NCBI GenBank assembly: GCA_040882645.1
Contig: JBBEAX010000038.1
Span: 44,164 to 108,163, forward strand
Direction: 5' to 3'
DNA length: 64,000 bases
Source: Acidimicrobiia bacterium
GTDB lineage: Bacteria; Actinomycetota; Acidimicrobiia; Spongiisociales; UBA11373
In this document: in pieces, positions 1,068 through 55,130 of the stretch
How the letters are laid out: each line of letters starts with the position of its first letter
How positions within the stretch are numbered: the first letter of the stretch is position 1
Made by a program: the position numbers and the translations under genes
Notes under the pieces: model-generated
Told to the model about the DNA's origin: nothing
What the model saw: only the letters and a program-made list of their open reading frames with translations
Database searches by the model: none

Positions 1068-1146
1068 GCGATACGCGATACGCGATACGCGATACGACCG
1101 ATCGCGCTGTTGCCTTCGTTCCTTCGTATCGCATATCGCGTATCGC
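1068..1146. repeat. heptad inverted array: (GCGATAC)x4 - 30 nt - (GTATCGC-like)x3
   Basis: Direct units lie at 1068-1095 and reverse-complement units at 1126-1146. The array sits in the hutU-hutI spacer and ends 4-16 nt before the hutI start. Confidence 0.9.
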
Positions 1147-1149
1147 GAA

Positions 1150-2364
1150 TTGCCGTCCTCGATGACCTCCCTCACCCTCACCAACATCGGCCAACTCGTC
1201 ACCAACGCTTCGGGAGTACCCGGTGACCTGGGGGTGATCCGCGACGCCGCGGTAGTGATCGACGATGGGCTGATTGCCTGGGTGGGGTCGGAGGCGGATC
1301 TCCCGGCCGAGCACGGTGATGCGGAGGCCCTCTCTTGTGAGGGCCGTGCGGTGCTGCCCGGCTTCGTCGATTCCCACACCCACCTCGTGTTTGCCGGTGA
1401 TCGATCGGACGAGTTTGCCCGGCGCCTGCGCGGCGAGTCCTACGAGGAGATCCTCGCCGCCGGTGGCGGGATCCACTCGACGGTGGCGGCCACCCGGGCG
1501 ACGCCAACCGATCGTCTCGCCGACGAGGCAGTGGCCCGCCTCGGAAGGATGCTCGCGATGGGCACCACCACCGTCGAGGTGAAGTCCGGGTACGGCCTGA
1601 CCACGGAGCACGAGATCCGCATCCTCGAGGCAGCCACCGAGGCGGGGCGCCGCTCGCCGGTGGATGTGGTCGCCACCTTTCTCGGTGCCCATGTGCCGGA
1701 TCGGGGGATGGACCGATCGGACTATGTCGACCTGGTCGCCGACGAGATGTTGCCCGCCTGCGCGCCGCTCGCCGAGTGGTGTGACGTCTTCTGCGACCGG
1801 GGCGCCTTCACGGTCGACGATGCCAGGCGCATCCTCGGCGTCGCCGCCGGGCACGGCCTGGGGGCCAGGTTGCACGCCGAGCAACTTGGCCACACCGGCG
1901 CGGCCGCCCTCGCCGCCGAGATCGGCGCGGCATCGGCCGATCATCTCGATCACGCCACCGCCGAGGATGCCGCCCTTCTCCGGGAGGCCGGCGTGGTGGC
2001 CGTGTTGTTGCCCGCCGCCTCGTTCTCGATGCGCGCCCCGCAGGCGCCCGGCCGCATGCTGTGGGACGCCGGGGTCACCGTTGCCCTCGCCACCGATTGC
2101 AACCCCGGCACCTCCAACGTCGAGAGCATGCCCTTCGTCATCGCCCTCGCCTGCCTCGAAGTCGGCCTCACCCCCGAAGAAGCAGTGTGGGCCGCCACCC
2201 GGGGAGGCGCCCAAGCCCTCCGCCTCGAAGACCGCGGCAAAGTCACCCCCGGCACCCTGGCCGACCTGACCATCCTCGACGCCCCCTCCTACACCCACCT
2301 CCCGTATCGACCGGGCTCCAACCCGATATGGAAGGTGGTCAAGCGAGGGCAGGTGGTGGCATGA
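1150..2364 (+). CDS. hutI: imidazolonepropionase
   Basis: 404-aa ORF with amidohydrolase/HutI blocks (PGFVDSHTHLVF, GGGIHSTV, SADHLDH, LATDCNPGTS). The start is ambiguous between TTG 1150 and ATG 1162. Confidence 0.9.
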   Translation: MPSSMTSLTLTNIGQLVTNASGVPGDLGVIRDAAVVIDDGLIAWVGSEADLPAEHGDAEALSCEGRAVLPGFVDSHTHLVFAGDRSDEFARRLRGESYEEILAAGGGIHSTVAATRATPTDRLADEAVARLGRMLAMGTTTVEVKSGYGLTTEHEIRILEAATEAGRRSPVDVVATFLGAHVPDRGMDRSDYVDLVADEMLPACAPLAEWCDVFCDRGAFTVDDARRILGVAAGHGLGARLHAEQLGHTGAAALAAEIGAASADHLDHATAEDAALLREAGVVAVLLPAASFSMRAPQAPGRMLWDAGVTVALATDCNPGTSNVESMPFVIALACLEVGLTPEEAVWAATRGGAQALRLEDRGKVTPGTLADLTILDAPSYTHLPYRPGSNPIWKVVKRGQVVA

Positions 2365-2368
2365 AGGC

Positions 2369-2576
2369 GCGATACGCGATACGCGATACGCGATACGACC
2401 GAATCGCGGTCGGACACGTCGACGCGTCTGACGGATGCGCGATACCTCGGACGTGTCGACATGCTCGAAAGCGGGATTGTCGAATCGCGAATCGCGAATC
2501 GCGAATCGCGAGCCGAGCGCAGCGAGGCCTCTTGCGAATTGCGAATTGCGAATTGCGGGCGGAGCGGAGCGAGGCC
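2369..2576. repeat. composite heptad region: (GCGATAC)x4, (GCGAATC)x4-5, then (GCGAATT)x3 bracketed by two 17-nt boxes
   Basis: The heptad arrays lie at 2369-2396, 2480-2514 and 2534-2554. The boxes are CCGAGCGCAGCGAGGCC (2513-2529) and CGGAGCGGAGCGAGGCC (2560-2576). Confidence 0.9.
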
Positions 2577-2578
2577 CC

Positions 2579-52517: not shown

Positions 52518-52523
52518 GCGGTT

Positions 52524-54551
52524 CTAGACCTTGGTCCTGCGAAGCATCATCGCGTTGACCGCGACGATCACCGTCGAGAGGCTCATCAGCAGCGCGCCGA
52601 CCGCCGGTACCAGGACCACGCCGACTGGCGCACCGACGCCGGCAGCGAGAGGAAGGGCGACGACGTTGTAGCCAGTCGCCCAAAACAGGTTTTGCCGCAT
52701 CTTCCGTCGCGTAGCGGCAGATATTCGGAGAGCGCGGGGAATCGCCGCCGGGTCGCTCTCGATCAAGACCACGTCGGCGGACTCGATAGCCACGTTCGCA
52801 CCTGCCCCGATGGCGATGCCCAGGTCCGCGGTGACGAGGGCGGGGGCATCATTGATGCCATCGCCGACGAATGCGGTCCGTCCCACGGTCTGTAGCTCGC
52901 GAACGATTTCTGCCTTTGCGCCAGGCAGGACCCGGGCGTGGTACCGCTCGATTCCCAGCTCGGCGGCAACCGTCGCGGCCACCGCGACAGCGTCGCCGGT
53001 GACCATGACGGGCGTGATCCCCTGGCGACGTAGTTCATCGATCGCGGCCCGCGCCGTCGGGCGGATCCGATCACGGAGGCTGACGACCCCCTTCACCGCC
53101 GACTCGTCCATCAATACCACGGCTCCCTGTCCTTGTTCGCCAGCCGCGGCGAGTGCTTGGACCATCGCCGGCTCCGTGGCGACACCGAGATCGTCTGCCC
53201 ATTCCGGACGGCCCACGCGCCAGCGCCGGCCATCGGCCAGGCCGACCACACCCATTCCAGCAACCGCGTTCACCTCGTCGGGCAATTCGAGTGTCAGGCC
53301 GCGCGACAAGGCCGCTTCGACGATTGCGGCGGCGAGGGGGTGTTCCGAAGCGCGCTCCAGGCTGGCTGCGATCCGAAGGACCTCGTCGACTTCCACCCCC
53401 GCCGCTGCTGAAACGGCGGCGACTTCGAAGCGGCCCTCGGTGAGGGTGCCGGTCTTGTCGAGTGCCACAAAACGGAGCCGGTGGGCTCGCTCGAATGCGT
53501 CCCGATCGCGGATCAGGATTCCGCGTCCCGCAGACATGGCGGTCGCATTCGCCATCACCAGGGGCACGGCGAGGCCCAGAGCGTGCGGGCAGGCGATGAC
53601 CAGCACGGTGACCGCGCGTGACACCGCAGTGGCGAGCCCGCCCGAACTCCACAGCCACCAGACGATGAAGGTGGGGGTGCTGACGGCGATTGCCACCACG
53701 ACCAGCCAGGATGCGGCGCGGTCCGCGAGGCCCTGATATCGGGTGCGCGATGCCTGGGCATCGTTTACCAGCCGCATCATCTGGCTGAGCGTCGACGCGT
53801 CACCCGTCCGTTCGACACGAATCGTCAATGCTCCGTCACCGTTGACTGAGCCGCCCACGACTTCGTCGCCGTCCTTCTTGGGGACAGGTCGGGACTCTCC
53901 TGTCAGGAACGACTCGTCAACGCTGGTGCGGCCGTCCGTCACGATGCCGTCGACGGGTACGTGCTCGCCGGGCCGGACGAGGATCAGGTCGCCTGTGGCG
54001 AGTTCCGCCGGCGGGACGTCGACGACGTCGCCGGCGGATATCCGGTGGGCAACGGCCGGGATCAGCTCAGCAAGATCTTCTAGTGCGCTCCCGGCCCTCT
54101 CCACCGACCGCATCTCGATCCAGTGGCCGAGGAGCATGACGACGATGAGGGTGGCGAGTTCCCAGTAGAAGGAGTCGCCGTCGAGTCCGAAGGTGACCGC
54201 GAGGCTGTAGCCGTAGGCGACGCTGATCGCCAGGGAGATCAAGGTCATCATCGCGGGCCGCCCGATACGAACCTCCCGCACTGCACCCTTGAGGAAGACC
54301 AGTCCGCCGTATCCGAAGAGGATCGAGGCGAGTATCGGCTCGAGGACCGATGAGCCCGGGAAGCTCAGAGCCTCGTATCCAAGCCATGACTGGATGGGAT
54401 CACTCAGGTAGAGGATGGGGAGCGTGAGCGCGACGGATACTCCCAGACGATTCCGGAACATCTCAGGAGAGTGACCTTCATGCCGGTCGTGGGCCGGAGG
54501 CCGTTTCGCATCGCGGGTCCCAGGGTGATCGTCGTGCATGGAAGCGGACAC
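52524..54551 (-). CDS. P1B-type heavy-metal ATPase, CPH (CopB-like) subtype with His-rich N-terminus
   Basis: Contains TGES, the TM6 motif [22 protein letters not shown] and [11 protein letters not shown]. The N-terminus is His-rich (HDDHPG...HDRHEGH) and has no CxxC HMA domain. The start is GTG 54551 or ATG 54539. Confidence 0.88.
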
Positions 54552-54576
54552 TACCCCACCCTGGGTGGGGTAGTGT
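54548..54576. promoter_or_regulatory. perfect 14-1-14 palindrome, CsoR-like operator candidate
   Basis: ACACTACCCCACCC-T-GGGTGGGGTAGTGT lies between, and overlaps, the 5' ends of the divergent CopB-like ATPase and cytochrome c genes. Confidence 0.6.
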
Positions 54577-54607
54577 GTCGACTTCTCCAGCGGACGAGAG
54601 GGTCCCC

Positions 54608-55045
54608 ATGGGTGCTGCCCGGAAGAAATCGCGATCGCCGACGCCGAATCGGATTGTCTGGTGGGTTGCCGGAATTCTCGGGGCAGTCCTCATCGTCTTC
54701 GTCGCAGTGACGTCGGCACCGCCAGGGACGACTTCATCGACCGATCCGGCCACCGTCGCCGCAGGAGAGAGGCTCTACCTCGACAACTGTGCGGTCTGCC
54801 ACGGGTCCGACCTGATGGGCACGACCACGGGACCACCGTTCTTGCACGTCATCTACGCCCCCAACCACCATTCGGATGAGGCGTTCCAGCAAGCGGTCGC
54901 CTCGGGTGTGGTGCCGCACCACTGGACCTTCGGCACGATGGCTCCGCTGTCCCACCTGACCAGGGCCGACGTCGCCAAGATCGTCGCCTTCGTGCGGGCG
55001 GAACAGCAGGCCGCGGGGATCACGCAAGATCCAAGTCATCCATGA
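54608..55045 (+). CDS. membrane-anchored class I c-type cytochrome
   Basis: N-terminal TM, a CAVCHG haem-binding motif and a downstream GTMAPL Met ligand candidate. ATG 54608 follows GAGAGGG. The ORF-track start at 54575 is an alternative. Confidence 0.72.
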
Positions 55046-55130
55046 GAAGAGAGTCAAGAGTCAAGAATCAAGAAGTCACAGGCGTCGTCCGGTCTTGGCT
55101 CTTGATTCTTGACTCTTGATTCCTGGCTCT
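55046..55130. repeat. CAAGARY heptad hairpin
   Basis: CAAGAGT CAAGAAT CAAGAAG lies at 55055-55075. GGTCTTG GCTCTTG ATTCTTG ACTCTTG ATTCCTG lies at 55091-55125. The hairpin sits between the cytochrome c stop and tRNA-Thr. Confidence 0.9.

Follow-up and report, generated by a model that had tools for sequence, protein, structure and literature searches.

The intergenic spacers of a chromosomal segment from an uncultured Acidimicrobiia bacterium (UBA11373) carry tandem repeats with a unit length of seven nucleotides, and these heptad arrays are the subject of this report. The window, meaning the whole stretch of DNA that was analysed, comprises 64,000 nt of the assembly GCA_040882645.1 (contig JBBEAX010000038.1, positions 44,164-108,163 of the forward strand) and holds ordinary chromosomal core genes: the hut genes, an ABC transporter, a Tad pilus operon, Trk potassium-uptake genes and H+-PPase as well as topA, tmk, holB, tilS, hpt, ftsH and folP. 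The closest named relatives of its hutI (imidazolonepropionase) are Acidimicrobiia genomes assembled from metagenomes. The gene map was made with a self-trained codon model and corrected with Pfam matches; its start codons are approximate and its stop codons are unambiguous.

Arrays were detected with Tandem Repeats Finder, by the match rate at a lag of 7 nt, and as runs with at least 11 of 14 lag-7 matches. Tandem Repeats Finder returned ~35 period-7 rows in the window, many of them with 100% identity. The lag-7 match rate was 0.339 in intergenic DNA versus 0.263 in coding DNA, and other lags divisible by neither 3 nor 7 gave match rates of ~0.26-0.27. Lag-7 runs cover 21.9% of the 4,618 non-coding nt versus 0.17% of the coding nt, and the other lags from 4 to 13 each cover at most 1.1% of the non-coding DNA. 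A sequence-only reading of this DNA had proposed a fixed 7-nt period with many unit sequences in the spacers and next to none in coding sequence. Both parts agree with the present counts (at least 35 canonical units were recognised among ~60 arrays), and the intergenic enrichment and the preference for period 7 held in the lag scan of the window and in 13 loci of the clade. Period-7 arrays were recovered at essentially every site that had been listed, the weak ones being 41951-41964 (2 units) and parts of 26242-26348. The estimate that about 15 of 22 spacers carry arrays is replaced here by 16 of 28 spacers of at least 60 nt (16 of 33 when spacers from 40 nt upwards are counted). The period-7 observation is confirmed as real and strong. 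Since the period is constant at 7 while the unit sequence varies, the arrays point to one period-specific process and not to one sequence family.

These arrays are not an assembly artefact, a possibility that had been raised beforehand, because they are shorter than a read and recur in NCBI, JGI, ENA and Logan assemblies. Two arrays have the same sequence, base for base, in a genome contig from NCBI and in a separately produced run assembly from Logan. Additionally, two related loci (L001 and L002) are identical, which speaks against an artefact and gives nothing on copy-number polymorphism.

The distribution of the arrays was determined in loci anchored on hutI, taken from GTDB species genomes and metagenomes, and in loci anchored on topA; the metagenome scan yielded only three close relatives. 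When strict arrays (at least 3 copies of a unit) were counted, the 13 clade loci held 62 in 176 kb (3.5 per 10 kb) and 155 other loci held 14 in 1.71 Mb (0.08 per 10 kb). Arrays are present at hutI identities of at least 70% (L170, L001, L171, L167, L168, L004, L088, L007, L005 and L009) and absent from L008 (68%) and L011-L014 (59-62%), as well as from the loci of Ilumatobacteraceae, Microthrix, Microbacterium and other Actinomycetota. At L010 (61%) a single repeat was flagged at several periods. The topA series gave a similar picture, with L172-L174 (84-90% identity) rich in arrays and L175 (76%) holding only 32 covered bases in 22.6 kb. The boundary seen at both loci indicates that the bloom is lineage-specific and patchy and is not general to high-GC genomes.

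Long heptad arrays were also observed in Alkaliphilus peptidifermentans DSM 18978 (L054, positions 4957-5125 and 17441-17622), an unrelated low-GC firmicute. Its units (GAATTAA x15, AAGATTG x8, GAGTGAA and AACATTC) are its own and form an independent heptad bloom, in which AAGAGTN-type units resemble the CAAGAGT family of the window.

Array size has its peak at four units. Among 126 period-7 arrays in the clade loci there were 33 with two units, 33 with three, 47 with four, 8 with five, 2 with six, 1 with seven and 2 with nine, and periods 8, 10 and 11 gave 0-1 arrays; a typical module thus has ~4 units (~28 nt). Arrays cover 15-25% of the non-coding DNA across these 13 loci, and by spacer type they cover 24.8% of same-strand, 23.6% of convergent and 14.6% of divergent spacers versus 0.32% of coding sequence. 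In 20 of the 33 same-strand spacers no more than 8 nt separate the upstream stop codon from the start of the first array, and in 14 the distance is 0 nt. As had been noted for the glpQ-like (GDPD) gene, its end lies inside an array (GGGCGAT GGGCGAT AGGCGAA); the last codons and the stop codon are inside an array in three genomes. All four convergent spacers of the window carry arrays. The placement of the arrays mostly at gene 3' ends, which had been proposed earlier, is borne out by the anchoring to stop codons and by the convergent spacers, but two divergent spacers of the window (16053-16244 and 26199-26399) also carry arrays.

It had also been proposed that a direct run followed by its reverse-complement run forms a long imperfect hairpin. 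Inverted partners were found, with examples that are 83-96% complementary. In minimum-free-energy folds of 89 arrays, 44 pair mainly with another heptad array, 11 pair with themselves, 15 pair with sequence outside the arrays and in 20 the pairing is weak; the self-pairing arrays are built of quasi-palindromic units such as GCCAATT. The z-scores of the window hairpins, calculated with RNAfold against dinucleotide shuffles, range from -3 to -6.8. Where modules are paired, the spacer folds from the stop codon as an imperfect stem-loop of 20-35 bp with a mismatch about every 7 nt. By appearance, these stems consist of helical blocks of 5-6 bp that are split by the mismatch.

Within each unit, 5-6 positions are constant and 1-2 are free. 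Variant bases cluster in one column of the array (0.50 observed versus 0.41 expected, p = 5e-4) when arrays are trimmed to core units; an initial version of this test that was diluted by flanking non-array units gave 0.56 versus 0.58, no effect. Pairing is less frequent at variable columns than at constant ones (59% versus 83%, p = 2e-11; this test is partly circular, since a base that varies finds no match in a partner arm that is itself a repeat), which suggests that the constant positions are the pairing ones. NACGGCC arrays have a column in which successive units show A, C, T, G in the window (45958-45988), with the other six positions constant, and A, G, T, C in L001 (3285-3312), where one further position varies. 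Two simpler rules for the units were considered and rejected. Some units are odd palindromes (CGAATCG, TTGGCAA) and most are not (GCGATAC, CAAGAGC), and many units lack a stop triplet on either strand, so that they could not serve as stop codons in all three frames.

Comparison of orthologous spacers showed, in two series, that the order of elements (stop codon, array, loop, array, next gene) is kept and the units are changed. In the hutU/hutI spacer the units are GCGATAC in the window, CGCAATG in L001, CCGTTNC and GCCAATC in L167, GCGATAC and GAATTGC in L168, CCCGTCG in L004, and CCCGCTT and GCGGGTA in L005. The topA 3' spacer has GGCCNAC/GCTGTTG in the window, GGTCSAC/GGCTGTC in L172 and GACGGGN in L174; in L173 (4195-4255; 86% topA identity) ~20 copies of (CTT)n replace the left heptad arm and are followed by (GGCTGGT)x4. 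After hutI, CCTTCCG in the closest relative (L170, 93% hutI identity) takes the place of the GCGATAC found in the window, L171 and L004. Units are therefore drawn from a shared vocabulary and re-assorted between spacers. Copy number changes as well: GCTGTTG is present in nine copies in the window versus ~3 units in L172, and a GCCCGTT array of ~12 copies (by eye) in L173 has only a trace at the same place in the window (52104-52144). That place in the window holds two degenerate heptads (GGCGAAG/GGTGAAA) and then a pentamer run, GGCCA x4.4, the only clear tandem repeat in a spacer with a period other than 7. Close relatives differ in whether a particular spacer holds an array. Across five genomes the topA promoter spacer is conserved and free of heptads, and the divergent Bmp<>Ada spacer is likewise conserved between the window and L001.

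Within a genome, the arrays on either side of a gene tend to be alike, as at hutI, where the flanks agree at 40 of 41 nt. Whole elements also occur at unlinked sites; these include a 57-nt element at 20113 and 41994 of the window and two hairpins 4.4 kb apart in L007. A 15-nt sequence that is not a heptad, CCGAGCGAAGCGAGG, holds the mini-hairpin core GCGAAGC and adjoins GCGAATT/GCAATTG arrays. It was found at 2513, 2560, 12325, 14383(-) and 14427(-) in the window, five sites versus a chance expectation of 0.64, and at 840 and 4038(-) in L001. A fully palindromic variant of it, GGCCGAGCTTCGCTCGGCC, occurs in L172. The individual arrays of the window are compiled in Table 1.

Table 1. Heptad arrays of the window and the elements associated with them (array coordinates from Tandem Repeats Finder).
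Position	Strand	Feature	Period-7 arrays	Context, pairing and fold
1065-1150		hutU/hutI hairpin: (GCGATAC)x4 arm 1067-1096 and inverted (CGTATCG)x3.3 arm 1125-1147	1067-1096, CGCGATA x4.3, 100% identical	Inverted arms 1065-1104/1117-1156, 40 nt, 83% complementary; RNAfold -57.4 kcal/mol, z = -3.9
2365-2399		(GCGATAC)x4	2368-2397, CGCGATA x4.3, 100% identical	Begins 4 nt past hutI stop codon; 40/41 nt identical to 1067-1107
2478-2578	+	Composite element: (CGAATCG)x4.4, CCGAGCGCAGCGAGG, (TTGCGAA)x3.7, CGGAGCGGAGCGAGG	2481-2511; 2532-2557	Ends at GDPD start codon; 47-nt period x1.9 also given
3334-3534		GDPD 3' end: (GGCGAWN)x4.6, then (CCGCCYT)x5; nested CAAGARY/TCTTGAT hairpin 3434-3505; partner run (GGCGGAG)x3.4 at 3511-3534	3334-3404; 3435-3500	First run over last codons and stop codon; RNAfold -103 kcal/mol, z = -3.8
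4153-4257		(AAGAGCC)x5.6 paired with (TCTTGAT)x3.9, then ACGGGTA-type run 4230-4257	4153-4228	Convergent spacer, 191-aa gene/permease gene; partner arms 4155-4184/4199-4228; hairpin begins inside TAA stop codon; same unit at same spacer in L001; z = -4.0
10141-10167	+	(GGCCNAC)x3.9	10141-10167	Begins 2 nt past adenosine deaminase stop codon; L001 orthologue (CAACGGT)x3.9
12298-12339	+	(CGAATTG)x3.3, then CCGAGCGAAGCGAGG	12301-12323	Downstream of two conventional GC hairpins after MFS gene
14381-14492		Two minus-strand CCGAGCGAAGCGAGG copies flanking (GCAATTG)x2.1, then (GCGGGCA)x3.7	14401-14415	Convergent spacer
15187-15276		CAAGARY/TCTTGAY hairpin	15242-15276	Directly past stop codon of minus-strand HAD hydrolase gene
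16099-16178		(GCAATGN)x4 + (TCGCGYC)x5 hairpin	16103-16178	Divergent spacer; HAD gene start 16052 (-), Tad operon start 16245 (+)
20060-20173	+	(CCGCTGC)x3.6 and 57-nt dispersed element 20113-20170		Array past stop codon; element has TTTCGCC heptads flanking small hairpin GGCCGGCAGGCCGCC, ~88% identical to 41994-42050
22339-22370	+	(AGAGTCA)x4.4	22339-22369	Begins 5 nt past stop codon, convergent spacer; conventional GC hairpin follows
26242-26354	+	Two degenerate GGCGAAN runs		Divergent spacer, helicase/P-type ATPase
40261-40488		(CGCAATT)x3.3 and inverted (CGAATTG)x4.3	40262-40284; 40458-40487	First run at H+-PPase stop codon; runs ~190 nt apart, predicted to pair as base of long stem (z = -3.1)
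41948-42061	+	GGCGAAG/GGCGAAT units paired with TTCGCCT units		Holds second copy of 57-nt element; z = -5.3
45958-46117	+	topA 3' spacer: (GGCCNAC)x4.4 and (GCTGTTG)x9.3	45958-45988; 46052-46116, GCTGTTG x9.3	Arms pair through G·U pairs; fold sense -133 vs antisense -82 kcal/mol
55049-55130		CAAGAGT/TCTTGAY hairpin, near-perfect	55050-55130	Between cytochrome c gene and tRNA-Thr; arms 55051-55073/55100-55122, 96% complementary; z = -6.8

Several other features of the window were recorded during this analysis. The convergent spacer that follows the Germane/Gmad2 gene, in which a heptad run precedes a conventional GC hairpin, is bounded on its other side by genes for a MazF/PemK toxin and a ribbon-helix-helix antitoxin (22408-23102, minus strand). 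A 94-nt tRNA-Met called by ARAGORN inside the BPD_transp_2 permease gene (5918-6011, minus strand) has no Rfam support and is probably a false positive. A gap of 524 nt in the gene map (55841-56364) follows the sigma factor gene at 55271-55840 and probably holds a gene for a zf-HC2 anti-sigma factor; a sigma70 and zf-HC2 gene pair is present in L174. Nested inverted repeats (43216-43311) enclose the ATG at 43280, the first codon of the longest topA open reading frame, with a perfect 16-bp hairpin (43247-43262/43266-43281) inside outer arms of 19 nt (43216-43234/43293-43311). The recorded topA protein (871 aa) starts ~54 nt downstream of this ATG, and a promoter-like stretch, TTGACA...TAAACC, lies upstream of the inverted repeats and is conserved in five genomes.

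Based on their architecture and position, a role of the heptad hairpins as terminators or 3' stabilisers, as the sequence-only reading had suggested, is plausible. Points in favour of a 3' or intercistronic stem-loop are the anchoring to stop codons, the occupied convergent spacers, the architecture that survives replacement of the units, and the pairing of the constant columns. In the topA 3' spacer the sense fold is better than the antisense fold in all four related genomes with arrays there (e.g. -139.5 versus -83.0 kcal/mol). An intrinsic terminator scan of positions 1-20000 gave 6 terminator-like sites versus 8.8 expected. No genuine run of T follows any heptad hairpin, and the tails beside the hairpins are TCTTG-type array sequence, which weighs against a role as terminators. 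Stem-loops that lack a U-tract are documented at the ends of actinobacterial transcripts (PMC13613805).

We interpret the arrays as heptanucleotide simple-sequence-repeat modules that are driven by slippage and conversion and are organised at gene boundaries as stem-loops like those of repetitive extragenic palindromic (REP) sequences, a reading in which our confidence is about evenly balanced. Strand slippage or realignment in the course of DNA synthesis would lengthen and shorten the arrays by whole units, strictly in the 7-nt register, and arrays would be homogenised and copied between spacers by ectopic conversion, spreading in unconstrained intergenic DNA up to the coding boundary. Once transcribed, the stems may behave like REP sequences and bacterial interspersed mosaic elements (BIMEs) or like the actinobacterial 3' stem-loops without a U-tract; they would serve to mark the 3' ends of mRNAs or to shield them, and to keep cistrons apart, and selection would act on pairing and not on unit sequence. 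In its favour are the period-specific, intergenic occurrence, the restriction to one lineage, the anchoring to coding boundaries, the hairpins and the layout that outlasts changes of unit; the matching hutI flanks and the recurrent elements of the window and L007 point to conversion or copying, and copy numbers are unstable. Several observations weigh against this reading. The arrays cover 14.6% of the divergent spacers, where promoters lie, and conventional GC hairpins share array-bearing spacers at 12240-12290, 22373-22407 and 41925-41945. Arm mismatches on the sense strand comprise 14 G·U versus 12 A·C and show no sense-strand bias, and the comparison of sense and antisense fold energies over 13 spacers was mixed, with only the topA 3' spacer consistent. 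Free slippage would also give a steadily falling size curve where a peak at 4 units is seen, purely local slippage predicts no recurrence of the same few units at unlinked loci and in different genomes, and the sharp lineage boundary is hard to derive from a general property of polymerases.

Since the 4-unit mode, the recurrence of units and the sharp boundary are unexplained by plain slippage, a more active mechanism keeps a small probability. We propose, as a tentative and rather unlikely alternative, that a factor gained at the base of the clade actively produces or maintains, at gene boundaries, modules of ~4 units with a 7-nt register. Candidates would be a polymerase or primase with repeated realigned synthesis, an enzyme of conversion or transposition, or a protein whose footprint is 7 nt; the column in which all four bases occur in turn may then mark the realignment junction of synthesis. 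If this were true, the same class of factor would explain the heptad blooms in cyanobacteria, Xanthomonas, Beggiatoaceae and Alkaliphilus. Somewhat less doubtful, though still improbable, is that the arrays are a non-functional by-product of mutation, in which a lineage-specific replication or repair bias towards 7-nt slippage fills unprotected DNA and the hairpins are incidental, originating for example from earlier terminator stems or fold-back copying. Arrays that run up to coding boundaries and into gene ends, the coverage of divergent spacers, the variable presence between close relatives, the symmetry of G·U and A·C mismatches and the conventional hairpins already present in several array-bearing spacers all fit such a by-product. 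It does not account for the direct and inverted layout that survives full replacement of units in orthologous spacers, for constant columns that are the paired ones, for a module size that peaks at ~4 units, or for the better sense fold of the topA 3' spacer in four of four genomes.

The near-identical elements at unlinked loci, the CCGAGCGAAGCGAGG sequence beside GCGAATT-type arrays (five sites in the window and two in L001), the re-assortment of modules such as CCTTCCG in L170 versus GCGATAC in the window, L171 and L004, and the sharp lineage boundary would also be expected of mobile elements like REPs, BIMEs or miniature inverted-repeat transposable elements (MITEs). Modules of array, loop and array would then be copied by an enzyme encoded elsewhere, such as a transposase of the RAYT/IS200 type. 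We regard this as quite unlikely: among the ~60 window proteins and the genes called on related loci no transposase was found, Y1 transposases included, and neither terminal inverted repeats nor target-site duplications were seen. Additionally, the loops between the arms are unrelated across copies, at least 35 different units are in use, and the copy numbers of orthologues differ in 7-nt steps. The period could alternatively be the footprint of a protein that covers 7 nt per subunit and docks on the arrays, for example a cold-shock-domain protein that tunes the hairpins on single-stranded RNA or another oligomeric RNA- or DNA-binding protein. According to a review in PMC4679880, CspB of Bacillus occupies heptamer repeats at one molecule per heptamer and has little preference for sequence. 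A period that is fixed regardless of sequence, modules of ~4 units, and units with 5-6 constant and 1-2 free positions are compatible with such docking. Because the units are very diverse in their chemistry, with GC-rich, AT-rich, purine-rich and pyrimidine-rich ones among them, the arrays are equal on both strands, no candidate protein was identified, and cold-shock proteins are universal whereas the repeat bloom is confined to one lineage, we consider docking sites very improbable.

Slippage- and conversion-driven modules with stem-loop architecture remain the reading that we favour, and the clade offers ways to examine it. Array-rich genomes stand beside array-poor relatives (hutI identity of at least 70% versus at most 68%), and a comparison of their gene content could name the responsible factor. 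Spacers that have kept their architecture and changed their units allow constraints on structure and on sequence to be separated. If the hairpins act as 3' stem-loops, the prediction of transcript ends and operon boundaries in high-GC metagenome-assembled genomes would be affected.

REP and BIME sequences have a proposed role in the protection of mRNA 3' ends, and the heptad hairpins resemble them as dispersed, lineage-specific imperfect palindromes that lie at 3' ends or between cistrons and form mosaic modules. REPs are single palindromes of ~35 nt that have a conserved head tetranucleotide and are tied to RAYT transposases; the arms in the window are tandem heptads and not one conserved palindrome, and no RAYT was seen in the window. 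The arrays do not resemble MITEs, as their copies share arms and not loops, no duplicated flanks appeared in the alignments and no terminal inverted repeats were found. A check of the whole window against Rfam, which had been suggested for the units, matched only the tRNA-Thr at 55147-55218.

Short tandemly repeated repetitive (STRR) sequences were described in 1990 and a genome survey followed in 2007, and the bacterial preference for 7 nt has been open since. The survey, which covered heptanucleotide long repeats in prokaryotes, is that of Mrázek, Guo and Shah (PNAS 104:8472). No unit of the window equals the sequences that we take to be STRR1 (CCCCAGT), STRR2 (TTGGTCA) and STRR3 (CAACAGT); the closest is GCTGTTG (reverse complement CAACAGC), with one mismatch to the presumed STRR3. 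In the summaries of the 2007 survey given by later papers (PMC4679880, PMC4692102), heptanucleotide repeats are the most abundant class among repeats of 5-11 nt in many prokaryotes, three Actinobacteria are among the ten richest genomes, and it is proposed that 7 nt matches the footprint of the polymerase and so favours slippage. As far as these summaries go, the surveyed repeats are like those of the window in being tandem, 7 nt long, intergenic, of many units per genome and patchy in their phylogenetic distribution. The survey, again in the form in which the citing papers convey it, is statistical and without Acidimicrobiia, and the passages on it in those papers give no paired-arm hairpins, anchoring to stop codons or modal size of 4 units. 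No published description of heptad arrays in Acidimicrobiia was found.

A study of the GGGAATC arrays of Xanthomonas by Rehm et al. (2015, PMC4692102) determined that most have four units, that some form inverted pairs, and that related species have arrays in the same spacers, where length and sequence vary. The window arrays share with these and with the GGGGAYT repeats of Nostoc the intergenic location, the size of ~4 units, the inverted pairs and the shared spacers (PMC4692102). In Xanthomonas and Nostoc, however, one G-rich family dominates and a G-quadruplex has been proposed, whereas the window has dozens of units, most of which are unable to form a quadruplex. In the P6b stem of the Nostoc trnL intron, 7-nt repeats lie on both sides and undergo indels of whole units and switching of class (PMC4476775). 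The likeness to this stem and to the STRR repeats extends to several heptamer families, stems of 7-nt repeats, length change by whole units and switching of units that does not follow phylogeny. Unlike the cyanobacterial repeats, those of the window are in a high-GC actinobacterial host, and their stems stand at stop codons in intergenic spacers and not in an intron. The TAACTGA repeats of Beggiatoaceae and cyanobacteria are likewise tandem heptamers of 2-6 copies that are intergenic and patchy across lineages, but they have a single unit and one orientation, lie mostly directly upstream of start codons and form no hairpins (PMC4679880).

The sequence-only reading had presented the period-7 architecture as unrecognised and attributed it to one shared mechanism. 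The part of this claim that concerns a period-specific mechanism acting on many units and giving hairpins stands. Its novelty does not, because the heptanucleotide excess with many units, the inverted heptad pairs of Xanthomonas and the stems of Nostoc had already been reported (PMC4679880, PMC4692102, PMC4476775). Most likely the arrays belong with the cyanobacterial STRR repeats, the GGGAATC repeats of Xanthomonas and the heptanucleotide repeats of the 2007 survey. The window adds a sharply bounded lineage to a known heptanucleotide-repeat phenomenon and does not represent a new kind of element.

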